Positions 7,081 through 52,982 of a stretch of DNA of 64,000 nucleotides are shown piece after piece; positions within the stretch are counted from its first letter, which is position 1, and each line of letters opens with the position of its first letter. Source of the DNA: Candidatus Woesebacteria bacterium GW2011_GWB1_39_10. Its GTDB lineage: Bacteria > Patescibacteriota > Microgenomatia > UBA8517. The stretch spans positions 85,820-149,819 of the forward strand of contig LBVU01000003.1 in NCBI GenBank assembly GCA_000993205.1, written 5' to 3'. The notes under the pieces are model-generated. The model ran no database searches, had not been told where the DNA came from, and saw nothing but the letters and a program-made list of their open reading frames with translations. Both the position numbers and the translations under genes were made by a program.

Positions 7081-7409
7081 TCATCCTGAATTCATTTCAG
7101 GATCTTCCTTGTCCTGAACTTGTTTCAGGATCTGCGTGAACAAATCCTTGAACTCCGGATTTTTTGTTTTAATCAAATCAATCTTCCATTCTCTATGCAA
7201 TTCTTGAGTTGTTTTTCTCTTTTGATCGCTTCCAATATTTCTTCAAAAACCTCGTAATAAAGAAGTTTGTAAGTCTTATATTTAGAGCTAAACATACTAC
7301 CAAACCCACTTCTATGCCGCGCAATTCTATTAATTAAATTAGAAGTCACCCCAATATACAAAACCGGTTTTTGATTTCCCAAAATGTAAACGAATCCTTG
7401 TTTAGACAT
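7081..7409 (-). pseudogene. GIY-YIG nuclease family protein, frameshifted near 7197
   Basis: 'FVYILGNQKPVLYIGVTSNLINRIARH' GIY-YIG motif. Frame 0 stops at 7173 ('...REKQLKNCIENGRLI*'). The +2 frame continues as the family-typical 'HREWKIDLIKTKNPEFKDL...' to 7081. A single missing G (TGG to TG) would restore '...QLKNWHREWKIDLI...'. Confidence 0.7.
7083..7131. repeat. Two tandem hairpins with YCCTGAA-N5-TTCAGGR stems
   Basis: ATCCTGAA-ttcat-TTCAGGAT (7083-7103) and TCCTGAA-cttgt-TTCAGGA (7112-7130). Related to the hairpins at 7420-7472 and to the infB/dnaK leader elements. Confidence 0.6.
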
Positions 7410-7419
7410 AATGACAAAG

Positions 7420-7472
7420 ATACTGAAACGAGTTCAGTATGACACACGCAGAAGCTGAACTGAATTCAGCTT
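7420..7472. repeat. Two hairpins, ATACTGAA-N5-TTCAGTAT and AAGCTGAA-N5-TTCAGCTT, between the Lon-like and GIY-YIG genes
   Basis: Perfect 8-bp stems at 7420-7440 and 7452-7472. Same CTGAA/TTCAG core as 7083-7131. Confidence 0.6.
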
Positions 7473-7486
7473 GACTCGGTGACTCA

Positions 7487-8533
7487 TCACTGTGGTATAA
7501 ATGTCTTTACGTTTTCGGAAGTTACCCGAACTTCTTTAGCTTTTCCTTCAACAATCATCCTGGCCACCTTACGCACAACTCCGTCGATATTCCGCTCAAG
7601 TGTACGGATTCCGGCGTCATAGCCCAAGGGTCTAACAATATTAGGCCAAACTTCGTCGGAAATAACAAGTGAGCCTTCAGGCAGCCCCGATGCTTTCATT
7701 GCGGCCGGCAAAATATATCTTTGAGCGATAACAGTCTTTTCCTGGTCGGAATAACTGGGCATGCTAATGGGCTCAAGCCTATCCATAACGGCAGTTGCGA
7801 TGCTTGTGGTGTTATTGGCTGTTGCAATAAACAGAGTCTCGGAAAGGTCGAAGGGGAAGTCGATATAATGGTCCACATAGGCATAATTCTGTTTGGGGTC
7901 CAAAAGCTCGACCAAAACTCCCATTATGCTGCTTCTGCCCTGTTCTGTAACCCTGTCGATTTCGTCCAAAAGTATAACCGGATTTCTGCACTGGGTATCC
8001 CTCAAGGCCTTAATAACTTTCCCAGGTTCTGCCTCAGGGTGCATTCGCGATTGACCGCGAAGGTCTAAAGGGTCTCCCATACCTCCAAAGGGAATACGGG
8101 CAATAGGCCTGCCCAGCGCTTCTGCAATCGAATAAGCAATCGTTGTTTTACCGGTACCAACAAGCCCCACAAAACATAGAATCGGGGCACGATACAAATC
8201 TTTCATTTCCCCTTTTTCGGTTTTTAGTTTCATAACACTCATGTACTCCAAAACACGGGTTTTAATATCATCAAGGCCATAGTGGTGAGCTTCAAGAATT
8301 TTCTTAGCATTTTCCAGGTCCAGAGTATCCTGGATTCTTTTGTTCCAGGGAAGGATTGTTATCCAATCAATATATTTTTCCATGCTGTCAAACTCGGGTA
8401 AAAATGAGGGGGAATTAGTAAGCTTGGCCAGTTGATTAAGACGAACCAGAACCATCTCGCGGAGTTTATCCGGTAAGCTGGCATTTTTAATTCTTTCTAT
8501 TAAAACAGTAATTTCCTGGGCAGCAGGTTCCAT
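7487..8533 (-). CDS. Lon-like AAA+ ATPase module, with no Lon N-domain and no S16 protease domain
   Basis: 348 aa. 'YIDWITILPWNKR...HYGLDDIKTRVLEYMSV...ILCFVGLVGTGKTT...VILLDEIDR...LLDPKQNYAYVDHY' aligns to the Lon ATPase core and alpha-helical subdomain. The ORF ends before any Ser-Lys protease domain. No SD upstream. Confidence 0.75.
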   Translation of the reverse strand: MEPAAQEITVLIERIKNASLPDKLREMVLVRLNQLAKLTNSPSFLPEFDSMEKYIDWITILPWNKRIQDTLDLENAKKILEAHHYGLDDIKTRVLEYMSVMKLKTEKGEMKDLYRAPILCFVGLVGTGKTTIAYSIAEALGRPIARIPFGGMGDPLDLRGQSRMHPEAEPGKVIKALRDTQCRNPVILLDEIDRVTEQGRSSIMGVLVELLDPKQNYAYVDHYIDFPFDLSETLFIATANNTTSIATAVMDRLEPISMPSYSDQEKTVIAQRYILPAAMKASGLPEGSLVISDEVWPNIVRPLGYDAGIRTLERNIDGVVRKVARMIVEGKAKEVRVTSENVKTFIPQ

Positions 8534-8559
8534 ACATTCATGATATCACGAAGTCTTTT

Positions 8560-9429
8560 TTAAATCCCAATTTTCCAAACACCATTCTCCCTAAATGCAG
8601 GTATTGCCTGTCTTTTAGCGGAGTTGAAAACCCCGGACCCTTCTAATCTATTTATTTTTACATATTCAGTCAGTGTTATTATTTTCAGACCTTTCAGATA
8701 GGTTATTCTTTTATTTAAAGACTCTATCAGGGCTTTGCTGATTATTTTAGTCATTAACTTTATGCTTTTGGTATCGTTAAACTCGTTAAAGGCTAAATAA
8801 TACTCAAGCTTTTCTTTATTTTTAACAATGATGTTTGGAAAACCAAGACTTAATAGTTGGAAGTTCAGTAAAACTCGACCGATTCTTCCGTTTCCGTCAT
8901 TAAAAGGGTGGATTGATTCAAACCCGAGGTGAAAACCAGAAATCTTATCCAAAAAATATTTTGTATTGTCGCTTGAATAACTTAACAACAAATCAGAAAT
9001 TAAACCTTCAATTTTTTCTGGTGGAGCGCCAATATGCGTCCCTACGCGAACATTTTCCGTCCCATTCCTAAATCTTCCCGAAATTTTGTCATTAATATTA
9101 TCTAAGAGCATTTTATGGAGAAACAAAATTACATGAATATCTAAATCAGTTCTTTCTTTATTTCTCAAATATTCAAAAATCCGGGCCAAATTTTTAGCCT
9201 CAAAAACCTCCCTTAAACTAACATCACGGGGAACCTCCATTTCCATGAGGATTTTTTCTGTCTCTTTCAAGGTAAGAGTCGAGTTTTCAATAGCATTGCT
9301 GTTATAGACACTCTCGGCGATTTCAGCCTCGTCTATTAAATTAAGCAAAGAGGATTTTCCTACCCTTCGTTGATCAAATTCCTTTTTGAGCTCATCGATT
9401 TTGGCTTTTGTAGAAGTTCCAACTGTCAT
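8560..9429 (-). CDS. Fic/Doc family protein (Fido AMP-transferase) with an N-terminal inhibitory motif
   Basis: Canonical Fic motif 'HPFNDGNGRIGR'. N-terminal 'SNAIEN' matches the (S/T)xxxE(G/N) auto-inhibitory helix motif (class II arrangement). Confidence 0.85.
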   Translation of the reverse strand: MTVGTSTKAKIDELKKEFDQRRVGKSSLLNLIDEAEIAESVYNSNAIENSTLTLKETEKILMEMEVPRDVSLREVFEAKNLARIFEYLRNKERTDLDIHVILFLHKMLLDNINDKISGRFRNGTENVRVGTHIGAPPEKIEGLISDLLLSYSSDNTKYFLDKISGFHLGFESIHPFNDGNGRIGRVLLNFQLLSLGFPNIIVKNKEKLEYYLAFNEFNDTKSIKLMTKIISKALIESLNKRITYLKGLKIITLTEYVKINRLEGSGVFNSAKRQAIPAFRENGVWKIGI

Positions 9430-9447
9430 ATAGTCATATTATACAAT

Positions 9448-9516
9448 ATTCACGCCTTTTTGTCAAATATGCGTGAATTTATGTCAAAAGTCGCCCAAAT
9501 TCACGCCAAATTCACC
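9448..9516. promoter_or_regulatory. TTCACGC repeat cluster (putative operator) in the Fic/DinD divergent promoter region
   Basis: ATTCACGCC (9448-9456), inverted GCGTGAAT (9471-9478), ATTCACGCC (9499-9507), AATTCACC (9509-9516). The spacer carries a TGTCAAA x2 direct repeat. Confidence 0.5.
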
Positions 9517-9534
9517 TTCCGAAGTCTTTCCTTG

Positions 9535-9563
9535 CCCTTCCGTAGCCTTGGCGAAGGAGGGTC
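9535..9563 (+). repeat. GC-rich ~29-bp repeat family, copy A (intergenic)
   Basis: 'CCCTTCCGTAGCCTTGGCGAAGGAGGGTC'. See copies at 29001, 29481, 49411 and 49945. Confidence 0.7.
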
Positions 9564-9695
9564 TCTAGCTTTTGTTATCAGTTCCTTGCAGGGTTTCTGC
9601 TTACAAGGAGTCATACTACTTGAAGGCGTTCCTTCCAAGGTGCACAAAAAAACCATATCTTGACTTCGGGTAATGTTTGGTTCTAAAGTGTATGT

Positions 9696-10523
9696 ATGGC
9701 CAAAACTTCTAAGATTGCATTATTTGAGGGGAATAAAATACGCAGGCATTGGGATAACAATAAAGAATTGTGGTATTTTTCTGTTGTCGACGTTGTCCAA
9801 ACACTAACAGATCAACCAGATTTTACCAGGGCCCGTAAATATTGGAATAAATTAGCAGAAAGACTTCGAAAAGAAGGAAGCGAGTCGGTGACAAAATGTC
9901 ACCAACTGAAAATGAAATCCTCTGATGGCAAATACTATCTTACTGATGTGGCGGACACTGAAACAATGTTACGTTTAATTCAGTCAATCCCCTCCCCAAA
10001 AGCCGAGCCTTTCAAATTATGGCTGGCCAGCGTAGGTTATGAACGATTGGAAGAAACTGCCGATCCGGAATTGGCTATTAATCGCGCTTTAAAAACATAT
10101 TTACAAAAAGGCTACAGCAGAGAATGGATCAACCAGCGTTTAAAAAGTATTGAAATTCGAAAAGAATTAACTGATGAATGGGAAAGCCGTGGGGTAAAAG
10201 AAGGGTTGGAATTTGCAATTTTAACCAATGAAATTACTGAAGCCTGGGCCGGGTTAACTACTAAACAATACAAAAATCTCAAAGGATTAAAGAAAGAGAA
10301 CTTAAGAGACAATATGACTAACTTGGAATTAGTTTTAAACATGTTGGCAGAAACAGCCACAACTGAAATTTCTCAAAAAAGAAAACCCAAAAACTTTCCT
10401 GAAAACAAAAAGGTTGCCAAAGAAGGAGGAACTGTGGCGGGGAACGCAAGACGCGAAATAGAATCAAAAACAGGTAAAAAAGTGATTACCGGAAAGAATG
10501 CTAAGAAATTGAAACTTATATGA
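9696..10523 (+). CDS. DNA-damage-inducible protein D (DinD)-like / Bro-N domain protein
   Basis: 'IALFEGNKIRRHWDNNKELWYFSVVDVVQTLTD...IQSIPSPKAEPFKLWLASVGYERLEE' matches the DinD/Bro-N antirepressor-type family from memory. Confidence 0.75.
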   Translation: MAKTSKIALFEGNKIRRHWDNNKELWYFSVVDVVQTLTDQPDFTRARKYWNKLAERLRKEGSESVTKCHQLKMKSSDGKYYLTDVADTETMLRLIQSIPSPKAEPFKLWLASVGYERLEETADPELAINRALKTYLQKGYSREWINQRLKSIEIRKELTDEWESRGVKEGLEFAILTNEITEAWAGLTTKQYKNLKGLKKENLRDNMTNLELVLNMLAETATTEISQKRKPKNFPENKKVAKEGGTVAGNARREIESKTGKKVITGKNAKKLKLI

Positions 10524-10552: not shown

Positions 10553-12988
10553 TTACCTTCCAAAGTCTTTATTGCTATCATCTCCCATTAGTCTTGAAGT
10601 TGGGAAATGGGGACCGCCTGCTTCTCCCGGTCTGTCGCTATTTCCAAAATCACGTCTTGGTCCACCAAAACCCGTTCTTGGACCTCTCGAAAATCCACCA
10701 CTTCTTCCTCCACTAAAACCTCCTCTTGAGCCTCCTCCAAAACCACCCCGTCCTTCACCGAATCCACCTCGTGAACCTCCGCCGAACCCACCGCGTCCGC
10801 CGCCCCTTGGTCTTTCCTCTCTCGGTTTATCTTTTGCCGGGTCCATGTTCATAGAGAGATTAATTCTTCCCATTTCGTCAATTTTGACTACACGAACCTT
10901 TACTTTATCGCCGATTTTAACAACATCGTTGGCGTCGGCTACAAATTCCTCTCGGCCCATGTCGCTTACATGTACCATTCCGTCTTTTCCGGGAAGAATA
11001 TTCACGAATGCTCCAAAAGGCATAATTCTAACAACTTCTCCGTCATAAATTTCTCCTGCTTGGACTTCTTTTGCAAAACCTTCGACGTAGGAAATTGCTG
11101 ACTGCATCTTTTCAGGATCAACTCCGCTTACCGCAACGCTTCCGTCATCGCTAACATCCACCGTTACTCCAAAGTCTGCCATAACCTTCTTAATATTCTT
11201 CCCTCCGGGGCCAATAAACTCACCAATCTTATCGACCGGAATCTTAACAACTTGAATCTTGGGCGCATATTGCGAAACTGTCTTTCTGGGTTCGGCTAGA
11301 GTATCAACAATCGCTTTCATCACCTGTCCTCTGGCATCTTTTGATTGTTCTAATGCCTTTTCTAAAATTTCGGGTGTTAAATTTAAGGTTTTAACATCAA
11401 GCTGAAGCGCTGTAATCCCCTTTTCCGTTCCCGCGACCTTAAAGTCCATGTCACCGTTATAATCCTCGATTCCCATGATGTCGCTTAGGACCGCAAATTC
11501 TTTCTCACTACTTCCGAATATAAGTCCCATCGCAATTCCGGCAACCGGAGCTTTTATGGGAACTCCTGCGTCCATCAACGAAAGAGTAGACCCAACAACT
11601 GAAGCCATAGAAGTCGAGCCGTTTGAACTCATTACTTCGCTGACTACGCGGATAGCATATGGAAAGTCATCTTGAGATGGGATAACCGGCTCAAGAGCCC
11701 GCTCGGCCAAAGCTCCGTGTCCAATTTCACGCCTGCCGGGATTTCCAAATCTCCCAACCTCACCGCTGGCGTAAGGAGGCATGGAATATTGGTGCATATA
11801 GCGCTTTTCTGCTTCACCCTCGGCAGATTCCAAGAGTTGACCCATTGATTGGGCGCCAAGTGTGGCGACAGAAAGAACATGGGTTTGACCCCTCTTGAAC
11901 AATGCCGATCCATGGACTCGTGGTAAATATCCGACTTCTCCGGATAATTTTCTTACCTCCGTCAGTTTTCGTCCGTCGGGGCGAATTCCCTTTTTAAGAA
12001 TTTGCTCACGAATGAAATCTTTCTTCATGTGATCAACAATTTCCGGTACCCATTTTGCGTCTGTCTCAGTTACATTTTCCGTAACGGCGTCGATTAAATC
12101 AGCCAGTTCAGTAGATCTTCCATTTTCAACCTGAACCAAACTTGCTACAACGCCGGCAATTTTGTCTCCAACTAATTTTTTGACTTGATTTTCAAGTTCA
12201 GCTGATGGCTTTTCTTCTTTGTATGTTTCGCGGGTTCTGCCAACCTCTTTAGAAAGATCTTCTATTAATTTAAGAACTGCTTTGGATTCTTTGAATGCAA
12301 GTTCAACGCCTTTTACAATTTGTGCCTCAGTTACTTCATTTGCGCCGGCCTCGACCATCAAAACCGCCTCTTTTGTTGAAGAAACGGTAAGATTCATTAA
12401 AGAAGCCTTCATCTCAGATGCTATCGGATTAATTTTGTATTTATCTTCGATCAAACCAACTGTTAGGGGAGCCACTGGGCCTTTCCAGGGAAGAGTCGAG
12501 ACGTGAATTGCAGCGCTTGCGGCAATTGCGCCCAAAGTCTTTGGATCATTTTCCATGTCAACGGAAAGAACGGTAACTGTAACCTGAACTTCCATTTTGT
12601 AGGATTTGGGGAAAAGCGGACGGATTGAACGATCGATTAGGCGGGCGGAAAGAATCTCATCATCGGTTGGTCTACCTTCTTTTTTAACCCATTTGCTTCC
12701 TTTAATTCGTCCTCCTGCATAAAGCCTTTCAAGATAGTCGACGGAAAGAGGAAAATAATCCATTTCCATTTTCATGGGCGCCGAGGCGACGGTTGCAAGA
12801 ACAACAGTATCACCGTGTCTGGCTATAACTGCTCCCCCTGCCTGTTCAGCAAGTTCTCCTGTTGAAAGGGTAAGGGTTCTGCCTCCAAGTTCTATACTTT
12901 TTTCGATCTTTTTCATTATTTTGAGGTAAGTTTGAAGATTGAGTTCTGAGGTCTCACTACTATCGTGAGACACCATTTCCAATCTCAA
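10553..12988 (-). CDS. pnp: Polyribonucleotide nucleotidyltransferase (PNPase) with a C-terminal RGG/RG-rich tail
   Basis: Two RNase PH domains, KH and S1 ('GEIYDGEVVRIMPFGAFV'), then a ~95-aa 'RGGGRGGFGGGSRGGFGEGRGGFGGGSRGGF...' tail. The true start is probably M25 at 12916 ('MKKIEKSIELGGRTLTLSTGELA'). Confidence 0.9.
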   Translation of the reverse strand: MRLEMVSHDSSETSELNLQTYLKIMKKIEKSIELGGRTLTLSTGELAEQAGGAVIARHGDTVVLATVASAPMKMEMDYFPLSVDYLERLYAGGRIKGSKWVKKEGRPTDDEILSARLIDRSIRPLFPKSYKMEVQVTVTVLSVDMENDPKTLGAIAASAAIHVSTLPWKGPVAPLTVGLIEDKYKINPIASEMKASLMNLTVSSTKEAVLMVEAGANEVTEAQIVKGVELAFKESKAVLKLIEDLSKEVGRTRETYKEEKPSAELENQVKKLVGDKIAGVVASLVQVENGRSTELADLIDAVTENVTETDAKWVPEIVDHMKKDFIREQILKKGIRPDGRKLTEVRKLSGEVGYLPRVHGSALFKRGQTHVLSVATLGAQSMGQLLESAEGEAEKRYMHQYSMPPYASGEVGRFGNPGRREIGHGALAERALEPVIPSQDDFPYAIRVVSEVMSSNGSTSMASVVGSTLSLMDAGVPIKAPVAGIAMGLIFGSSEKEFAVLSDIMGIEDYNGDMDFKVAGTEKGITALQLDVKTLNLTPEILEKALEQSKDARGQVMKAIVDTLAEPRKTVSQYAPKIQVVKIPVDKIGEFIGPGGKNIKKVMADFGVTVDVSDDGSVAVSGVDPEKMQSAISYVEGFAKEVQAGEIYDGEVVRIMPFGAFVNILPGKDGMVHVSDMGREEFVADANDVVKIGDKVKVRVVKIDEMGRINLSMNMDPAKDKPREERPRGGGRGGFGGGSRGGFGEGRGGFGGGSRGGFSGGRSGGFSRGPRTGFGGPRRDFGNSDRPGEAGGPHFPTSRLMGDDSNKDFGR

Positions 12989-24794: not shown

Positions 24795-24822
24795 CACTTC
24801 ATTACTATATAGTAATGAAGTG
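24795..24822. promoter_or_regulatory. 28-bp perfect palindrome CACTTCATTACTAT|ATAGTAATGAAGTG in a divergent promoter region
   Basis: Core TTACTATATAGTAA is shared with the palindromes at 25273-25306 and 48103-48130. Sits 2 nt upstream of the TrpR-like start. Confidence 0.7.
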
Positions 24823-24824
24823 AT

Positions 24825-25274
24825 ATGACAAAAGTTTCAGGACTTCCACTTAGGCCAGATGTTTGGAATAGAGTATTGGAACTATTTGTTTCTACACTTG
24901 CCAACCAAACGAATAATAAAAAATTGTCGGAGTTTTTCGATGACTTTTTCTCCCCAACAGAAAAAATAATGTTTGCCAAACGGCTTGCGGCGGCAGTTTT
25001 ACTGGCCAAAAACCATGATTACCAAAGCATCCATGAAATTCTCAGAATCAGTCCTCCCACAATAGCAAAATTGAGTTTGAAAATTAAATACGGGGGAGAA
25101 GGACTAAAACCCGTGATAGAAGATATTTTTAAAAAGGAAGCAAATCAAATAGTTTGGAAGGAAATCGAGAGTCTGTTTGATCTGCCAACTAAAGGAAATA
25201 TAAAATCTCCTGAAAGATTTAAAAGAAACCTCAAACGCGAGCAAAAAATTCGAGAAATAAAATCCGAATTTTAA
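24825..25274 (+). CDS. TrpR/YerC-YecD-like DNA-binding protein
   Basis: 'LSEFFDDFFSPTEKIMFAKRLAAAVLLAKNHDYQSIHEILRISPPTIAKLS' matches the Trp-repressor-like YerC/YecD pattern. Confidence 0.65.
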   Translation: MTKVSGLPLRPDVWNRVLELFVSTLANQTNNKKLSEFFDDFFSPTEKIMFAKRLAAAVLLAKNHDYQSIHEILRISPPTIAKLSLKIKYGGEGLKPVIEDIFKKEANQIVWKEIESLFDLPTKGNIKSPERFKRNLKREQKIREIKSEF

Positions 25275-25306
25275 ATACTTAATTACTATATAGTAATTAA
25301 GTATTT
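25273..25306. repeat. 34-bp perfect palindrome AAATACTTAATTACTAT|ATAGTAATTAAGTATTT
   Basis: Located between the convergent TrpR-like and dnaJ genes. Second copy of the TTAATTACTATATAGTAATTAA core. Confidence 0.7.
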
Positions 25307-28175: not shown

Positions 28176-28655
28176 TCAGGATAATTGTTTGCTAACAATC
28201 ACCTTCGCATGTCTTACTACATTACCATCTTTAAACTTCCAACCCGTAACAAGAACCTCTGAGATCATATTATCCATCTTTCCGTCAATTACTTCAATAA
28301 CTTCTTGACTGTTTTCGTCAAATTCACTTCCAATTTTAGGATTTATTTCTTCCAAACCTTCTTCAATAAAAACTTTTTTAAATTCCAAAATCGATATCGC
28401 AAGTCCGGAATCTTTTAGATGCTCCTGAGCTTTTTCTAACATGTCCATTATTGGCAGCAGTCTTGAGATTATGCTTAAAGACGAAAATTTTGTCCAAGAA
28501 ATTTTCTCTTCCTCAGTCCTTCGCTTTAAATTATCATAATCCGCCAAAGTTCTTGCCAGTTGGCTTTTCAGCTGTTCCATCTCCAAACTATTCGCTACCA
28601 GGGCTTTGACTGGCCAAGCTTTGCTTATTCGCTTTTCGCTTTTCGCTTTTTTCAT
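28176..28655 (-). CDS. grpE: Nucleotide exchange factor GrpE
   Basis: 159 aa, positioned between hrcA and dnaK, with a GrpE C-terminal pattern. Confidence 0.85.
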   Translation of the reverse strand: MKKAKSEKRISKAWPVKALVANSLEMEQLKSQLARTLADYDNLKRRTEEEKISWTKFSSLSIISRLLPIMDMLEKAQEHLKDSGLAISILEFKKVFIEEGLEEINPKIGSEFDENSQEVIEVIDGKMDNMISEVLVTGWKFKDGNVVRHAKVIVSKQLS

Positions 28656-29413
28656 TGGTTTGCAACTTCCTCAATTAAATTACCAAAATATCTCAAAATC
28701 GGAATGACTGACGCATAGTCTGCTCTGGCGGGGCCAATCACTCCAAGGGCCCCAGGCTTTCCTTTTATACTAAAATGTGTCGAAATTATTCCCGACGTTG
28801 CCAGTTCCGGCATTCCTAATTCTTCACCAAACAAAACTTCCAAGGGTGAAGTAGACTGGAATCCAAAGAAAAGCCTGTCTAGTTTATCAAACTCATCAAA
28901 AATTGAAAATAGATTCTGACAAGCTGCCATTTCTGCAAACTCAGGATTATTAAAAACATAGGAATGTCCAGCCTGCCAAAAGCGGTCCCTCGCCCCGCGA
29001 AGCCCATTGGGTGAAGTGGGGTTTTTTAGTGCCGCTATCGCGAGGGAGCGTGTCCGACTTGCCAAGGCGTGTGTTGCCTCGTCCATGAGTTCGTCGATAT
29101 CGTCCCGAGAGTCCCAAACTTCCTCTTTAGCTTTGACTTCATCGACCAAGCTCATTTGTTTTTCTTCCATAAGTTGATTTATATAAAATTTCATCGCAAG
29201 CGGCGACGGAATTCTTCCTGCTGAGGTATGGGGTTGACGGAGGTAACCGGATTTTGTCAGCGCAACCATTTCGTTTCTGATTGTTGCCGGGGAAACTCCA
29301 AGATTATATTTTTTGTCGAGTGCGTCACTTCCCACAGGTTCGGCAGTTTCGATATATTCATCAATAATCGTCTTTAATATTTGGGTTTGACGGGAAGTAA
29401 GTGAATCAGTCAT
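28652..29413 (-). CDS. hrcA: Heat-inducible transcription repressor HrcA (short)
   Basis: 'LTSRQTQILKTIIDEYIETAEPVGSDAL' N-terminal wHTH. hrcA-grpE-dnaK-dnaJ order. Carries an in-frame GC-rich repeat insertion (29001-29032). Confidence 0.85.
   Translation of the reverse strand: MTDSLTSRQTQILKTIIDEYIETAEPVGSDALDKKYNLGVSPATIRNEMVALTKSGYLRQPHTSAGRIPSPLAMKFYINQLMEEKQMSLVDEVKAKEEVWDSRDDIDELMDEATHALASRTRSLAIAALKNPTSPNGLRGARDRFWQAGHSYVFNNPEFAEMAACQNLFSIFDEFDKLDRLFFGFQSTSPLEVLFGEELGMPELATSGIISTHFSIKGKPGALGVIGPARADYASVIPILRYFGNLIEEVANQ
29001..29032 (+). repeat. GC-rich repeat family, copy B (inside hrcA, translated in-frame as NPTSPNGLRGA)
   Basis: 'CGCCCCGCGAAGCCCATTGGGTGAAGTGGGGT'. Confidence 0.7.
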
Positions 29414-43868: not shown

Positions 43869-45803
43869 ATGAATGACGTAGACAAGCTAACAAACGATTT
43901 AAACAAAGACCAGTTCGCTGCCGTAATTTATACCGCAGGACCCCTTCTGGTTTTGGCCGGAGCGGGATCGGGAAAGACAAAAGTTTTAACACACCGTGTG
44001 GCCTATTTTATCCAACAAGGCCTAATTAAACCTGAAAACGCGCTTCTTTTAACATTCACCAACAAAGCAGCCACAGAGATGCGGCAAAGAATTAACGACC
44101 TACTCGGTCAGTCATCAGCCAACAGTAAACAGTCAACGGTTTTCTCCGGAACATTTCATAGTTTTTGTGCCAAAGTTCTCAGAATTGACGGAAAACATAT
44201 TGGAATTCCAATAAACTTCATTATTTACGATGATCAAGACCAAAAAGACGCCGTTAAACAAATTTTGGAGAGTATCAACATTTCAACTGATCAGTTTGCC
44301 CCGGCTTCAATTTTAAACGGAATCGGAGAAGCAAAGAATCAAATGTTGACTCCGGCCGAGTACAAGAATTTTGTCAGAGGTGAGTGGCAAGAGGTGGTTG
44401 CCAAGGTCTACGAGCAGTACGAAAAAATGCTCAAGGATATTGGGGCTCTGGATTTTGATGACCTGATGATCAAAACAGTCCAACTTTTCAAGGAGGTTCC
44501 GGAAATTCTTACAAAATGGCAAACAACTCTAACACATATTTTCGTTGACGAATGGCAAGATACAAATAAAATCCAGTACACCCTAACAAAACTTTTAGTC
44601 GGAAAAAATCGCAACATTACAGCGGTGGGGGATGCTTCCCAATCGATTTATTCATGGCGAGGAGCTGACTATCGAAATATAACACTACTTACGAGGGACT
44701 ACCCGGATATTAAAATCGTTAATTTAGAACAAAATTACAGATCGACTCAAAACATTCTTGATGCCGCCAACCTGGTCATTTCAAAAAATACAAATCATCC
44801 TATTTTGAAACTTTGGACAGATAAACACGCTGGATCTAAAATCAAGCTCTACTCTGCCAGAAATGGTTTTGATGAGGCAGATTTTGTTGTTTCTGAAATT
44901 CAATCCCGAGATTCAAAGTATGGCGACTTCGCCATACTTTATCGCACCAATGCCCAATCCCGTGTTTTAGAGGAGGCCTTCTTACATGCCGGCATTCCTT
45001 ATTCCTTAGTTGGAGGGACAAGATTTTACGACCGTAAAGAAGTCAAGGATATCATTAGCTACTTAAAATATTTAGTTAATCCAAAAGATTCAGTTTCCCG
45101 AAAGAGGATTGAGAAAATCGGAATTCGTCGTTTTGAAAAATTAGAAGAATTTCGCAACTCCCAAAATTCCCTAAATTCCCTAACCACCTTGGAAATGCTT
45201 GATGCTGTTATACAAAAAACCGATTATCTTTCTTTGTTTCAAAAGGAATCGGAAGAAAATTTGGCCCGTCTGGAAAACATAAAGGAATTAAGAAGCGTCG
45301 CCACAGAATTCCCCGCTATCAGTGATTTTTTGGAAAATGTTGCGCTTGTGGAATCAACCCAAAAACCTGCTAATTCCGCCTCAATTGCTAAAGATTCCGT
45401 GACCCTTATGACCCTGCATGCGGCCAAGGGATTGGAATTCCCGATCGTTTTTATAGTTGGCATGGAGGAGGGACTTTTCCCCCACAGTAGAAGCTTAATG
45501 GACGGAAATCAGCTGGAGGAGGAACGTCGTTTGGCATATGTGGGTATCACCCGTGCCAAAGATGTTCTTTATTTAACTTATGCCAGTTCCCGTCTTTACT
45601 TCGGAGAAAGAATCAGTAACCCCCCGAGTAGGTTTATAATGGACATTCCAGAGGACTTGATCGAGAATATAGATGCTAATATATGGAAGGATGACTTGTC
45701 CTCCAAAGCCTTGGCGTCGGAGGATCTAAAATTGGATTCTGTAGAAGATATCAAGGGAACTTTTGACGATATAATTGAGAAATATTTACCACATGACGAC
45801 TAA
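43869..45803 (+). CDS. UvrD/PcrA/Rep-family DNA helicase
   Basis: 'LVLAGAGSGKTKVLTHRVAYF', 'IFVDEWQDTN', 'GTFHSF', 'VGITRAK'. Confidence 0.9.
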   Translation: MNDVDKLTNDLNKDQFAAVIYTAGPLLVLAGAGSGKTKVLTHRVAYFIQQGLIKPENALLLTFTNKAATEMRQRINDLLGQSSANSKQSTVFSGTFHSFCAKVLRIDGKHIGIPINFIIYDDQDQKDAVKQILESINISTDQFAPASILNGIGEAKNQMLTPAEYKNFVRGEWQEVVAKVYEQYEKMLKDIGALDFDDLMIKTVQLFKEVPEILTKWQTTLTHIFVDEWQDTNKIQYTLTKLLVGKNRNITAVGDASQSIYSWRGADYRNITLLTRDYPDIKIVNLEQNYRSTQNILDAANLVISKNTNHPILKLWTDKHAGSKIKLYSARNGFDEADFVVSEIQSRDSKYGDFAILYRTNAQSRVLEEAFLHAGIPYSLVGGTRFYDRKEVKDIISYLKYLVNPKDSVSRKRIEKIGIRRFEKLEEFRNSQNSLNSLTTLEMLDAVIQKTDYLSLFQKESEENLARLENIKELRSVATEFPAISDFLENVALVESTQKPANSASIAKDSVTLMTLHAAKGLEFPIVFIVGMEEGLFPHSRSLMDGNQLEEERRLAYVGITRAKDVLYLTYASSRLYFGERISNPPSRFIMDIPEDLIENIDANIWKDDLSSKALASEDLKLDSVEDIKGTFDDIIEKYLPHDD

Positions 45804-48102: not shown

Positions 48103-48130
48103 AACTTAATTACTATATAGTAATTAAGTT
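48103..48130 (+). terminator. Third copy of the AT-rich palindrome (AACTTAATTACTAT|ATAGTAATTAAGTT) followed by TTTTTAG
   Basis: Lies in the convergent intergenic region. A hairpin plus T-run on the + strand fits a terminator. The shared core with 24795 and 25273 suggests it is also a regulator site. Confidence 0.55.
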
Positions 48131-48131
48131 T

Positions 48132-51092
48132 TTAGCTTCTGGATTTGCAAAACATTGAGAACTCACATTTTCCCTGACAAAAAAAGTTGTTGTTGCATTT
48201 GAAATCCGAATTTTCGATTTCGTCACGGATCTTTAAAATTTCTTCTTTTACTTTTTCCAGATCTTTCTCTGTCCTGGTTGTAGAAATTTTTTCCTGAGTA
48301 TCCAAATAATAAAGTGAAAGTTTTATATCTTCCGGTTTTATCTTTCTTATATTGCTCATCGCTAATGCATAAAAAGATAATTGAAGATCTTTATTAACTT
48401 CTTTTTGAGTAGGAATCGTTGCCCCGGTCTTATAGTCAATAATTTCTATTCTGCTTCCACCCAAATCATCAACCCTGTCGATTGTGCCGCCGATCCGCAA
48501 GGATCGTCCTGAACTCGTTTCAGGACCTAACGGTAGAACAAATTTTCCCTCAAGCAAAATAGTTCTTATCTTTGGATCATACCCATTCTTTATAAATCCC
48601 TGAAGATAAAGCTCGCCTTTCTTGTAGAATTCCTGTTTATGTTTTTTGTTTAAATATCCATCTTCGAGGAAAGATTCTTTATATATTTCAATCAATCTTT
48701 CCGAAAAACCCCGTAAAGCCGCAGGCGTTGTGGGGTTCAATGAAATTTCTTGATAGAATTTTTTAAGCGTCTCATGAATCGAAATTCCGAAACTACTCGA
48801 TGCAAAAGCTTTTGTCGGAAGTTTGTAAACATATTTAAGTTTGTAATGTAGCGGACATGTTTGGAATGTTTCGATTTGACTCACCGAAAGGTATTCTACC
48901 TTTCGTGGCTCTATGCTATATGGTTTATGCTTTATGGGTTCGCTACCATATTGCTTATGGCTTAAAGCATATGGCTTTTCATTGGCATAAGGCATACGGC
49001 TTGTGGCATCTTCCCCAAGCGTTTCATACACGAACGGGCTAATTTTCTTCTTTCTCTTTGCCTCACCATAGAAATCCGCCGCGCTAAAGTACAATTTTTC
49101 CTTTGCTCTGGTCATTCCAACATAAAAAAGCCTTCGCTCTTCCTGCAAATGAAAATCCCCTTCCGGTAAAACTTCTTTTATTAATTCTTGTGGAATTGGA
49201 ATTTGTTCATGACGTTCGCGTCCAGGAAATCTCTCCCCCACCAGGTTAACCAAAAACACGATCGGAAATTCAAGGCCTTTCGAAGAATGAACTGTCAAAA
49301 TATTTACGGCGTTATTTTCCTGCCAGTCGCCATCTGTAACATTGGGGCTCTCCCCCACCTCAAGCAAAAGATCTATATAGTCCACAACCTCAGCAACCCA
49401 ATTTTTGCTTGCCCCGCGAAGCCTTGGCGAAGTGGGGTCGTCTTCATAGGATTTAATCTTTTCAAAAAACTTGGCAATGTTTTTGGCTTTGGTGTCCTCC
49501 GAATTTTCTATCAACTTTTGCAACAACCCAATCTCCCGAATACAATCGTATAAAATTTCCCCGGCTGTCTGAGACTTAATTACTTTTAAATGCTTATCGA
49601 TAATCAACAAAAGTTTTTTGATTTGTTCATTTCCTGATTCTGCCGCGATTTCAAAAACCGACAAGCTTCTCTTTTTTGCTGCAGATGAAATTTTAATAAG
49701 CTCCAATGGAGATATATCAAAAATGTCAGATGATAATAGTCTGTAAAAAGATTCTGAATCTTCCGGGTTATATAAAATTTTGAGATATGAAATCAAATCA
49801 ACAATTTCCTCTTTTTCAAATAAATTACTTGGTCCCAAAAATTGATTTGGTATCCCCCGTCTTTCTAGTTCTCTTACAAATGGATCTGCATGGTTGTTCG
49901 CACGTATTAAAATAGCCATGTCTTTAAAATCATATCGTGCGAACCTTCCCGAAGCCTTGTGCGAAGGAGGGTTGGTTGTCAATTTGAGGATCTCCTTCAC
50001 AACAGAGTGCGCCTCATCCCCAACATTGGCGGCATGAACAAATTTTATTTCCGACTTCCCGCCCCTAACTTCCGACTTCAATCGCTTGTCTATCCCCTCC
50101 ACAACTTCCAACCTGTCCGGGTTGTTGTGTTGAATTAAATCATATGCCCTATCCAGAATTTCTTGAATAGAACGGTAGTTTTTTGTAAGAACTATTATTT
50201 TTGTTTTTGGAAACGTTTTTCTAAATTGAATAATGTTAGAAACCGCCGCTCCGCGGAAACGGTAAATTGATTGATCATCGTCCCCCACCACTGTAATATT
50301 TTGAGATTTGCCAGCCAAAAGAATGGCGAGTTGATTTTGCGCAAAATTTGTATCCTGAAACTCATCTATTAAAATATATTTAAATTTCTCTTGATAAATT
50401 TTAAGAATATTAGGACGTTCTTTGAAAAGTTTTATCGTATTTGTGATGAGGTCACCGAAATCCATTACGTTTTCTTTTATTTTTAGATCACTATATTTTT
50501 TATAAGCATTGGCCAACTCCACATTTTTCTTGGCTTCTAGTTTTTCCTCATCACTCAATTTTAAATTTTTAATTTTAAATTTTAAATTCACCCATGCGAC
50601 ATAGTCGCTGGGTGCTACGCATTCATCCTGCAGTCTATTAAAGTGTTGCAAAAGTCCATCAATAAACTTATTCGGGTTCCCCAAGGGTCTAAAATAATCT
50701 AGATCGAGGTCAAATAGGTTTTTTCTGACTAGATCAATTGCTTGCGCTTCTGTCATTAATTTATAACTCGGAGATAGACCAATGTGTATCGCATTATCCC
50801 GGAGAATTTGATCGCAAAAAGAATGAAATGTCATAACCCACATTTGTGTATAACCATATGGGAGTGCCACATCAATTCTTTCTTCCATTTCCTTTGCCCC
50901 TTTTTCTGTAAAAGTCAGCGCCAATATCTCTTCGGGTTTGGCCAGTCCACTCATTATTAAGTGTTTAACCCGCTCGGAAATTACTGTGGTTTTGCCAGTC
51001 CCCGCGCCGGCGATAATGAGAAGCGGTCCATCGCCAAACTTGACGGCTGCGATTTGCTCTTTGTTGAGTTTTAAATTTGAAGTTTCTATCAT
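48132..51092 (-). CDS. UvrD-family helicase fused to a C-terminal Cas4/AddB-type PD-(D/E)xK nuclease with Cys cluster
   Basis: N-terminus 'LIIAGAGTGKTTV', 'ILIDEFQDTN'. C-terminus 'TCPLHYKLKY...RIEIIDYKTG...CNNNFFCQGKCEFSMFC'. Contains a KPY-type low-complexity linker and two in-frame GC-rich repeat copies. Confidence 0.8.
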   Translation of the reverse strand: MIETSNLKLNKEQIAAVKFGDGPLLIIAGAGTGKTTVISERVKHLIMSGLAKPEEILALTFTEKGAKEMEERIDVALPYGYTQMWVMTFHSFCDQILRDNAIHIGLSPSYKLMTEAQAIDLVRKNLFDLDLDYFRPLGNPNKFIDGLLQHFNRLQDECVAPSDYVAWVNLKFKIKNLKLSDEEKLEAKKNVELANAYKKYSDLKIKENVMDFGDLITNTIKLFKERPNILKIYQEKFKYILIDEFQDTNFAQNQLAILLAGKSQNITVVGDDDQSIYRFRGAAVSNIIQFRKTFPKTKIIVLTKNYRSIQEILDRAYDLIQHNNPDRLEVVEGIDKRLKSEVRGGKSEIKFVHAANVGDEAHSVVKEILKLTTNPPSHKASGRFARYDFKDMAILIRANNHADPFVRELERRGIPNQFLGPSNLFEKEEIVDLISYLKILYNPEDSESFYRLLSSDIFDISPLELIKISSAAKKRSLSVFEIAAESGNEQIKKLLLIIDKHLKVIKSQTAGEILYDCIREIGLLQKLIENSEDTKAKNIAKFFEKIKSYEDDPTSPRLRGASKNWVAEVVDYIDLLLEVGESPNVTDGDWQENNAVNILTVHSSKGLEFPIVFLVNLVGERFPGRERHEQIPIPQELIKEVLPEGDFHLQEERRLFYVGMTRAKEKLYFSAADFYGEAKRKKKISPFVYETLGEDATSRMPYANEKPYALSHKQYGSEPIKHKPYSIEPRKVEYLSVSQIETFQTCPLHYKLKYVYKLPTKAFASSSFGISIHETLKKFYQEISLNPTTPAALRGFSERLIEIYKESFLEDGYLNKKHKQEFYKKGELYLQGFIKNGYDPKIRTILLEGKFVLPLGPETSSGRSLRIGGTIDRVDDLGGSRIEIIDYKTGATIPTQKEVNKDLQLSFYALAMSNIRKIKPEDIKLSLYYLDTQEKISTTRTEKDLEKVKEEILKIRDEIENSDFKCNNNFFCQGKCEFSMFCKSRS
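49411..49439 (+). repeat. GC-rich repeat family, copy D (in-frame in helicase-nuclease; encodes DDPTSPRLRGA)
   Basis: 'GCCCCGCGAAGCCTTGGCGAAGTGGGGTC'. Confidence 0.7.
49945..49973 (+). repeat. GC-rich repeat family, copy E (in-frame in helicase-nuclease; encodes NPPSHKASGR)
   Basis: 'CTTCCCGAAGCCTTGTGCGAAGGAGGGTT'. One extra base relative to copy D, so it is translated partly in a different frame. Confidence 0.7.
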
Positions 51093-52372: not shown

Positions 52373-52402
52373 CCACTTAAATACTGTACAGTATTTAAGT
52401 GG
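52373..52402. promoter_or_regulatory. 30-bp perfect palindrome CCACTTAAATACTGT|ACAGTATTTAAGTGG
   Basis: Overlaps the 3' end of the MBL gene, upstream of the repeat-protein gene. No U-tract in the transcribed direction. Confidence 0.55.
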
Positions 52403-52982
52403 CAACTTTAAACATTTTCCCGTGTCCTGGAATTATAATGTGCGCTTTGGATAAAACTAATTTTCTTGATGCAAGAAGCGCTTCTTTGTCATTAGCAAAC
52501 GGATCTTCTAAATTTAATAAATCTTCTACATTATCCGATTTTTGTTTTCCATCCTCCCACCAGAAAACATCTGGACAAATACAAACCACCCCATCCTCTG
52601 TTTCTATCAGAAGCGACGTGTCTTCAGTTGCATGGCCAGGAGTTTTTAATATTTCTACATCTACATCCGGCAATTTACCTTGATGAAAAATTTCCCGATC
52701 ACCACTCCAACAAATTTCTCCATCATAAATATCTAAATTTGGAAAAAGCCTGGTATTTAGCCAATGATCCGGGTGATAGTGACTTAAATAAATAAAGGAT
52801 AAATCGCTTTCATTTATGTTTTCTTTCTTTAGTGCTTCTAGAAGTTTTTCCCTACTTGTTCCCGGATCGACCAAAAACTTTTTTCCATTCGACTCTACCA
52901 AAGTGCATGTGGGGCTGGCGGTATAACTTCCATCCTCATTTGGGTGTGCATACCCTTCCACCAATACTTTTGCTTTATTCAT
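52395..52982 (-). CDS. MBL-fold metallohydrolase
   Basis: 'LSHYHPDH' and a second 'TPGHATED' motif. Confidence 0.75.
   Translation of the reverse strand: MNKAKVLVEGYAHPNEDGSYTASPTCTLVESNGKKFLVDPGTSREKLLEALKKENINESDLSFIYLSHYHPDHWLNTRLFPNLDIYDGEICWSGDREIFHQGKLPDVDVEILKTPGHATEDTSLLIETEDGVVCICPDVFWWEDGKQKSDNVEDLLNLEDPFANDKEALLASRKLVLSKAHIIIPGHGKMFKVAT

Follow-up and report, generated by a model that had tools for sequence, protein, structure and literature searches.

A putative self-repressing Fic cassette and its probable passenger, a GC-rich hairpin, in a Woesebacteria genome

Which gene do the short repeats between two divergent genes of Candidatus Woesebacteria bacterium GW2011_GWB1_39_10 serve, and which protein binds them? 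The repeats lie in a 64,000-nucleotide stretch of contig LBVU01000003.1 (the window), in a 266-bp gap that separates a gene for a Fic-domain protein (8560-9429, minus strand) from a gene for a Bro-N/DinD-like protein (9696-10523, plus strand) and that holds the whole finding. The preferred reading, to which a probability of about 0.68 is given, is that positions 9438-9516 are the promoter and putative operator of a self-contained, self-repressing Fic cassette, with a GC-rich repeat as a passenger and the DinD-like gene as a separate unit. An earlier, sequence-only reading had described an A/T-rich inverted pair, direct repeats and a GC-rich repeat with a partial copy, and had proposed a dimeric repressor site possibly acting on both genes. 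All of these elements are indeed found where it placed them, including the GC-rich repeat about 100 bp upstream of the Fic start, for which the measured distance from the ATG is 106-134 nt. What that reading had not noted is that the A/T-rich repeats sit on a Fic promoter which matches the sigma-70 consensus at 12 of 12 positions.

This promoter runs from 9466 to 9438 on the Fic strand (TTGACA-17-TATAAT), and is the sole site of its kind in the region. Its -10 hexamer ends 8 nt ahead of the ATG (9429), which leaves no space for a ribosome-binding site, and therefore the Fic mRNA is probably leaderless or nearly so, a prediction drawn from a -10-to-ATG distance of 8-9 nt that is kept across phyla. 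The -35 hexamer is bracketed by GTGAAT half-sites (9448, 9471, and 9499) in alternating orientation, spaced 25 and 26 bp centre to centre. The first and third are copies of ATTCACGCC (9448-9456 and 9499-9507) and the second is GCGTGAAT (9471-9478), which combines with the proximal copy into a 31-bp inverted repeat, ATTCACGC-N15-GCGTGAAT, centred on TTGACA. The previously described direct repeat, ATTCACGCC-AA-ATTCACC, is present as well (ATTCACC at 9510-9516), and corresponds to an 11-bp tandem duplication (CCAAATTCAC twice) that creates a fourth half-site at 9510 and is absent from all other cassettes examined.

Short repeats in an A/T-rich spacer could be chance similarities without function, and a window-wide count of the 9-mer agrees with such an explanation, since matches with at most one mismatch are not enriched (10 against 11.4 expected). 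However, 3 of these 10 matches fall within 60 bp, and the inverted pair ATTCAC-N14-24-GTGAAT occurs once in the window against 0.07 expected. The exact 9-mer is found only at its two operator positions within the 64 kb. The comparative data refute chance, which is hardly tenable given that the arrangement is present in 33 independent upstream regions.

The comparison started from loci fetched for nine Fic homologues with 61-85% identity. Eight of the nine keep the same segment of about 80 bp, composed of three GTGAAT half-sites, TTGACA, a TATAAT-like hexamer, and an ATG 8-9 nt further on. The neighbours of these Fic genes are unrelated, and include a PIN gene (locus L001), a cluster of pnp, a second Fic gene, and a HAD gene (L004), a restriction-modification system (L015), and a large TPR protein (L010 and L017). 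None of the nine loci has a DinD-like gene or the GC-rich hairpin. The two arms beside the -35 hexamer differ jointly in L017, where they are ATTCATC and GATGAAT. When 185,579 genomes, one per species, were scanned with the pattern ATTCACG-N4-TTTGACAA-N6-GTGA, 38 loci were returned, against about 4 expected by arithmetic. At 30 of these 38, a Fic homologue (50-85% identity) starts 46-47 nt past the match, in one case with a GTG start codon. These 30 loci belong to many classes of Patescibacteria, about a dozen chromosomes of Latescibacterota, one metagenome-assembled genome (MAG) each of Elusimicrobiota and Cytophagales, and MAGs labelled as Gammaproteobacteria.

Altogether, 33 distinct regions, from several phyla and with unrelated neighbourhoods, share a module of about 95 bp ahead of a Fic homologue (50-88% identity). 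The consensus of these regions is conserved only at the A-tract with the distal GTGAAT, the middle ATTCACG, the TTGACAA, the proximal GTGAAT, the -10 hexamer, and the ATG. The spacing is also maintained: in 19 of the 33 cassettes the start codon is at +47 relative to the middle half-site, and 27 of the 33 have a distal GTGAAT at 26-27 nt on its upstream side. That the half-sites bracket the Fic -35 hexamer, and that Fic homologues keep them upstream together with the promoter hexamers, argues for the proposed regulation of Fic by these repeats. The proposal of a dimeric repressor site stands in part: the element is operator-like in its position and conservation, but with three alternating half-sites it is not a simple dimer site. 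Complementarity at position 8 between the two operator arms was considered as an additional feature and discarded, being at the level of chance (11/33).

The wide distribution of the cassette also suits a different explanation, in which the GTGAAT repeats would be recombinase or transposase sites serving cassette mobility instead of a transcriptional operator. The cassette does occupy unrelated chromosomal sites in several phyla, the secE-nusG-rplK cluster among them, and its conservation stops at the distal half-site and the A-tract that precedes it. Yet the exact placing of the half-sites around the -35 hexamer and their fixed spacing to the -10 hexamer and the ATG are needed by repression and not by mobility. 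Moreover, the 3' end of Fic is free of repeats, no recombinase gene travels with the cassette, and the operator pattern was not found in 2.9 million viral contigs. Taken with these points, a role as mobility sites is very unlikely.

Several Fic loci are of interest in their own right. In two different Patescibacteria the cassette separates rplK (L11) from nusG within a gene cluster, secE-nusG-rplKAJL, that is normally invariant (L008 5830-6870 and L013 5786-6873). The second Fic gene of L004 (343 residues), located downstream of pnp, has a promoter at 2603-2680 formed by TTGACA, a spacer of 17 nt, and TACAAT 9 nt before the ATG, with the direct repeats ATCGGCTA / ACGGCTA across the spacer. Its sequence suggests another Fic cassette with a leaderless mRNA, under a candidate operator unlike that of the window. 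In the window, Fic is followed after 26 nt by a gene for a Lon-like AAA+ protein (7487-8559; AAA and Lon_lid, without the protease domain), and the distance is 18 nt in L004; this gene may be co-transcribed with Fic in this lineage only.

The identity of the protein that binds the half-sites is suggested by the composition of the cassette. No neighbouring gene is conserved across the Fic cassettes, which makes the Fic protein itself the natural candidate. The helix-turn-helix (HTH) gene that could be expected nearby is then most likely not a separate gene but Fic, through a modelled winged helix at its C terminus. Fic homologues are abundant in Patescibacteria, and the assignment of the window protein to the family is clear (Pfam PF02661, E=4e-19, 69.6 bits against a cut-off of 24). 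Its catalytic motif HPFNDGNGRIGR (residues 174-185) fits HxFx(D/E)GNGRxxR, and residues H174, P175, F176, and D178-R185 are invariant in an alignment of 14 homologues. The N-terminal inhibitory motif SNAIEN (S44-N-A-I-E48-N49) is invariant in the same 14 proteins. In the scheme that Engel et al. reportedly set out in 2012, class II proteins carry their inhibitory motif, (S/T)xxxE(G/N), on a helix that precedes the Fic core within one polypeptide.

The C-terminal region of the protein is equally well kept, since its last approximately 40 residues (FNSAKRQxIPAFREKGVWKIG) are nearly invariant across homologues of 60-88% identity. AlphaFold models residues ~250-288 as a beta-alpha-alpha-beta-beta winged helix, with a pLDDT above 90 in the full protein and of 92.5 when the domain is modelled alone. 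A Foldseek comparison of this domain with the PDB returned mostly winged-helix DNA-binding neighbours, such as RepE, BldC, Z-alpha, and ArsR-type repressors, at E-values of at least 0.09, which is what a domain of this small size would lead one to expect. The closest local superposition is with BldC, at a probability of 0.97 and an rmsd of 1.6-1.7 A over 40-42 residues. A fold search with the whole protein returned Fic cores only.

The proposed mechanism would work as follows. The consensus sigma-70 promoter would drive a leaderless Fic mRNA, transcribed from a start presumed to lie at or close to the ATG. Once translated, the Fic protein may bind the GTGAAT half-sites through its own C-terminal winged helix, as the conserved sequence, the structural model, and the analogy with known Fic repressors suggest, and the bound protein would occlude the -35 region. 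As a result, a potentially toxic AMP-transferase would be held at a low, self-limited level.

Several points weigh against this proposal. The winged-helix assignment comes from AlphaFold and from Foldseek matches with E-values of 0.09 or higher, and neither Pfam (E up to 10) nor a profile search against PDB sequences gave a meaningful match for the C-terminal domain. The half-sites, three in alternating orientation and about 2.5 helical turns apart, are also more than a simple dimer requires. In addition, 8 of the 38 pattern matches have no Fic gene directly downstream. One of them (L019) looks like a chance match, and another (L052) is a cassette that has lost its Fic gene. In two Latescibacterota loci, L042 (5397-5480, with tandem operators) and L048 (2687-2717), the operator and the -35 hexamer stand ahead of an ORF of 835 residues, which from its translation we take to be a type I restriction-modification methylase. 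The operator and -35 hexamer of L036 (665-700) precede an ORF presumed from its translation to be MazG-like, followed by an ORF of 676 residues without a confident name, and those of L039 (5776-5806) precede an ORF presumed, from its translation only, to encode a small membrane protein. The copies in L038 and L049 precede no nameable gene, although in L038 a sequence distantly matching Fic (26% identity) lies about 1.5 kb upstream. These copies imply either a few extra targets of the regulator or the reuse of promoter fragments, and another factor could also act at such sites. The operator copy ahead of the methylase-like ORF in L048 shares its chromosome, OZ253462.1, with an intact Fic cassette (L043), which hints at a small regulon.

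The most direct alternative is that a separate regulator, either the Bro-N/DinD-like protein or a global factor of the host, binds the repeats and co-regulates the Fic and DinD-like genes. Bro-N domains are DNA-binding, the DinD-like gene has a Fic cassette, or what is left of one, beside it in two related genomes (that of the window and that of L052), and a few operator copies stand ahead of genes other than Fic. Nevertheless, the DinD-like gene is missing from about 40 other operator-bearing loci and accompanies no other intact cassette, and no other neighbour is conserved. A host factor tied to one single gene across Patescibacteria, Latescibacterota, Elusimicrobiota, and Cytophagales is unlikely, too. 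The DinD-like gene has a promoter-like site of its own, about 150 bp from the nearest half-site, which in L052 moves with its gene. For these reasons a separate regulator is improbable, and co-regulation of the DinD-like gene, as put forward in the sequence-only reading, is not borne out.

The L052 locus is particularly informative about the DinD-like gene. It belongs to contig CAZBTH010000016.1, labelled as Gammaproteobacteria, yet it is a close relative of the window, with a pnp C-terminus that is near-identical by eye. The 52-nt block 9647-9698, which contains the DinD-like promoter, is 88% identical to L052 866-917, and in L052 the gene and this block (830-1710) are found on the opposite side of the Fic position. 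There, the last approximately 30 nt of Fic are joined directly to the proximal half-site, so that Fic and its -10 hexamer are deleted, and a sequence of 15-16 nt, CAATTTTCCAAACTC, flanks the DinD-like cassette on both sides. To judge from these sequences, the DinD-like gene appears to be an independent, translocatable cassette of about 870 bp whose adjacency to Fic is coincidental. In E. coli, dinD is under SOS (LexA) control. We know of no LexA motif for this lineage, and no palindrome was noticed in 9640-9695 in a repeat listing, in which no search for a LexA box was made. Next to the DinD-like gene, the PNPase C-terminus (10553-10800) holds a long tail rich in RGG/GGF (RGGGRGGFGGGSRGGFGEGRGGF...), which is also found in L052.

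Table 1. Features of the Fic-DinD gap and hairpin copies in the 64,000-nucleotide window
Feature	Position	Strand	Remarks
Fic gene	8560..9429	-	289 aa; Pfam PF02661; class II Fic
-10 hexamer TATAAT of the Fic promoter	9438..9443	-	12/12 consensus scan; position conserved
Proximal half-site, GGCGTGAAT on the Fic strand	9448..9456	-	within the -35/-10 spacer
-35 hexamer TTGACA of the Fic promoter	9461..9466	-	centre of the 31-bp inverted repeat; invariant across cassettes
Middle half-site, ATTCACGCA on the Fic strand	9470..9478	-	abuts the -35 upstream; inverted relative to proximal and distal
Distal half-site, GGCGTGAAT on the Fic strand	9499..9507	-	26 bp centre to centre from the middle site
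Extra partial half-site GGTGAAT	9506..9516	-	11-bp tandem duplication, CCAAATTCAC twice; this genome only
Truncated hairpin 5' half, CCTTCCGAAGTCTT	9515..9528	+	direct repeat; kept in L052
Hairpin copy A, full	9531..9564	+	intergenic; covariance model 44.5 bits, E=1.5e-9
Promoter-like site of the DinD-like gene, TTGACT-18 nt-TAAAGT	9660..9689	+	ends 6 nt before ATG 9696
Bro-N/DinD-like gene	9696..10523	+	275 aa; Pfam Bro-N; weak NCBIfam DinD match
Hairpin copy E, diverged	28988..29024	+	antisense in ORF 28652-29413 (-); 23.5 bits, E=6e-4
Hairpin copy F, diverged, expanded loop	29480..29524	+	intergenic, upstream of ORF 28652-29413; 20 bits, E=0.005
Hairpin copy B	45694..45727	+	C-terminal tail of UvrD-like gene (43869-45803, +), sense; 39.7 bits
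Hairpin copy C	49407..49440	+	antisense in AddA-like helicase-nuclease gene (48132-51092, -); 49.6 bits
Hairpin copy D	49939..49974	+	antisense in the same AddA-like gene; 27.4 bits

The GC-rich repeat of the gap had been considered part of the same regulatory region. It consists of a hairpin, CCCTTCCGTAGCCTTGGCGAAGGAGGGTC (9535-9563), preceded by the partial copy CCTTCCGAAGTC (9515-9526). In the full copy, named A, 9535-9541 pairs with 9556-9561, with one bulged T, and encloses the loop GTAGCCTTGGCGAA. The hairpin is absent from all other Fic cassettes examined. In L052, the truncated half and the full hairpin (86% identical over 51 nt) are found 4.8 kb from the operator, 6 nt past the pnp stop codon, and no hairpin follows pnp in the syntenic relative L004. 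The repeat at 9515-9564 is thus most likely a passenger and not part of the Fic switch.

The window contains further copies of this repeat. A search for its 16-nt core with up to 3 mismatches gave 4 matches against 0.32 expected, and a covariance model of the family recognises six copies, all on the plus strand and four of them inside ORFs. The AddA-like protein of the window is 100% identical to a protein of Candidatus Woesebacteria bacterium GW2011_GWA2_40_7. Its comparison with 18 aligned orthologues identifies two of these copies as insertions. Copy D is an in-frame insertion of 10 codons found in this genome alone. Copy C, also in-frame, adds a net 8 codons in place of NKNAG and is shared with 2 of the 18 orthologues; a third (P0130) has a variant insertion at the same site, and the other 15 have none. 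At the copy D site, the AddA-like orthologue L177 has another short insertion, encoding the peptide NPNYKLRATG, and P0123 and P0129 have similar ones, so that, on the aligned sequences, this site is a hot spot for short insertions. Copy E encodes the peptide NPTSPNGLRGA in ORF 28652-29413 (minus strand), which, read by eye from its translation, is presumably hrcA.

Outside the window the family is large. A metagenome scan with the pattern CGNAGMCTTGGCGAAGKRGG yielded at least 120 stretches with the hairpin (L057-L176), on contigs of 31-72% GC, and a scan of viral contigs yielded 65 (L179-L243), some of them with three copies. The family consensus, cYTGyCCnCCGwAGCCTTGGCGAAGGnGGr, spans about 30 nt (30-34), and its 14-nt loop, GwAGCCTTGGCGAA, hardly varies, whether in contigs of 31-72% GC or in those of phages. 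The stem of 6-7 bp shows compensatory changes, with one pair being CG in 34 and UA in 22 sequences, and another UA in 30 and CG in 16. In total, 53 cells are changed on both sides, against 20.1 +/- 3.7 after shuffling, and none of 500 shuffles reached this value. The 3' flank of the family is not conserved. The A-variant of the consensus has a stop codon in none of the six frames, and the CGTAG variant has a TAG in one. In low-GC contigs the hairpin is found within ORFs in either orientation, adding peptides such as LLRQGFGGQA, SFAKASAG, or RSLGEVG, and the ORFs that hold it are, as far as we can tell by eye from their translations, those of GatB, ArgRS, UvrC, MnmA, YraN, an ABC-F ATPase, and ribosomal protein S6. 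Truncated halves beside full copies, as in the window, recur in L073, L084, and L135.

Does the hairpin nonetheless have a function at 9515-9564, be it as a displaced 3' stabiliser or terminator of pnp, as an insulator between the divergent promoters, or as part of a small RNA? The position of the L052 composite just past the pnp stop codon, the stem upheld by compensatory changes across the family, and the ability of the truncated half to take the place of the full 5' arm in pairing with the 3' arm are all consistent with such a role. On the other side, the hairpin has no U-tract, a terminator scan of 9515-9570 found no site on either strand, and L004 lacks the hairpin after pnp. Single-sequence folding gives z-scores near zero, no better than shuffled sequence, a measure that is uninformative for such short stems. 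Scans of the window for tRNAs and Rfam families gave nothing, and Rfam searches of the hairpin regions of 20 loci returned no matching family, only unrelated tRNA and 16S matches. The copies inside ORFs, in both orientations, also fit poorly with a single role at the transcript level, and overall a function of the hairpin at this place is unlikely.

Other roles were considered for the hairpin and dropped. The partial copy as an alternative in a terminator/antiterminator switch is possible on paper, with nothing else in support. A Shine-Dalgarno sequence (GGAGGgtcATG) sequestered by the hairpin before a conserved gene was ruled out, the downstream frames being short and unrelated. A replication-strand bias was not reproduced in the metagenome set (45 vs 37, p=0.44) and appeared weakly in the viral one (40 vs 23, p=0.04). 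An excess of G-T over A-C in the stem (24 vs 3) was discarded as confounded by the search pattern.

A tentative explanation, somewhat short of an even chance, is that the hairpin is an undescribed miniature insertion element of about 30 nt that colonises housekeeping genes in-frame as well as intergenic DNA, next to or into itself. In that case, phages could act as vectors, and an HUH/Y1-type single-strand enzyme or another hairpin-specific enzyme could be the driver, and copy A would simply mark one insertion beside the Fic cassette. A literature search found nothing relevant for the hairpin sequence or its encoded peptides. The nearest parallels are the palindromic elements of Rickettsia (RPEs; Ogata et al. 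2000, as reviewed in PMC10969869), which insert in-frame into unrelated housekeeping genes, measure about 100-150 bp, and are confined to Rickettsia. Like RPEs, the hairpin is a palindromic repeat that inserts in-frame into genes and adds a peptide without destroying the protein, but it is only about 30-34 nt long and is spread over Patescibacteria and many other contigs, including those of phages. The repetitive extragenic palindromes known as REP/REPIN are mobilised by RAYT (Y1/HUH) enzymes, species-specific, and marked by a GTAG head 5' of the stem (PMC3116915, PMC3479197, PMC6006769). The hairpin shares with them a short (20-40 nt), GC-rich, imperfect palindrome, many dispersed copies that are at times adjacent or nested, and the maintenance of the hairpin. 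In contrast to REP/REPIN, it is often intragenic and crosses phyla, and its GTAG, where present, lies in the loop; no RAYT gene was seen in the window, where no search aimed at one was made.

Other repeats were seen in the window. An A/T-rich palindrome of 26 bp, ACTTAATTACTATATAGTAATTAAGT, is present in four perfect or near-perfect copies (24796-24825, 25277-25306, 48104-48133, and 52375-52404). These are candidates for a family of binding sites or terminators, with no relation to the Fic finding. Hairpin repeats of the form TCCTGAAyTyrTTTCAGGAyCT (7084-7133 and 7418-7442) flank a small GIY-YIG gene (7173-7409), with a further copy at 48504-48528 by the AddA-like gene.

The cassette offers a testable case of a Fic enzyme with its own putative repressor domain and a compact, probably leaderless promoter, distributed from the ultra-small Patescibacteria to Latescibacterota. 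With it, the type so far characterised only in CccR would gain a large family and a different DNA-binding fold, and it supplies a defined promoter and a candidate operator for organisms with almost no known regulatory DNA. The GC-rich repeat is a more unusual object than the operator and merits its own study. If it proves to be a true mobile element, some of the odd short insertions seen in proteins of candidate-phyla-radiation bacteria would be accounted for, and selfish DNA so small and so widely shared would be unusual.

The best comparison for the Fic cassette is CccR from Yersinia pseudotuberculosis, a class II Fic toxin with a C-terminal HTH that is a demonstrated repressor of its own promoter (PMC9755527). 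Its operator, AGATAATCAT-N26-ATGATAATCT, is located by the -35 and -10 boxes, and the DNA-binding helices of the CccR dimer are about 70 A apart (PMC9755527). The two systems share a widely spaced inverted repeat over their own -35/-10 region and the lack of a separate antitoxin gene. They differ in size (380 aa for CccR, 289 aa for the window protein) and in the operator, which has three half-sites of 7-9 bp spaced by 25-26 bp in the window and a 10-N26-10 arrangement in CccR. In addition, the window Fic mRNA is probably leaderless and the gene has no type VI secretion context. A phmmer match of the window protein to PDB 7XUX, which is presumably the structure of CccR, covers residues 71-197 (the Fic core) only and leaves the DNA-binding domain unmatched, so that the window protein would be CccR-like in its working but not an orthologue. 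Unlike that of CccR, its DNA-binding domain is modelled as a BldC/excisionase-like winged helix of about 40 residues.

Other structural relatives are the class II Fic proteins SoFic (SO_4266; PDB 3EQX, deposited as 'Fic domain containing transcriptional regulator') and BT_2513 (PDB 3CUC). SoFic has an additional C-terminal domain of the winged-helix type, whereas the C-terminal domain of the window family is much shorter, and the identity of the window protein with SoFic and BT_2513 is low (15-24%). To our knowledge, no operator has been defined for either of them. The cassette also resembles autoregulated type II toxin-antitoxin systems, in that a potentially toxic gene has an operator lying over its promoter, the module is mobile and confined to a single locus, and the feedback proposed is negative. 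In contrast to those systems, it has no antitoxin gene, inhibition would be intramolecular through the SNAIEN helix, and the putative DNA-binding domain is fused to the toxin-like enzyme itself. The Fic cassette is most likely a new, family-level variant of the CccR-type self-repressing Fic.

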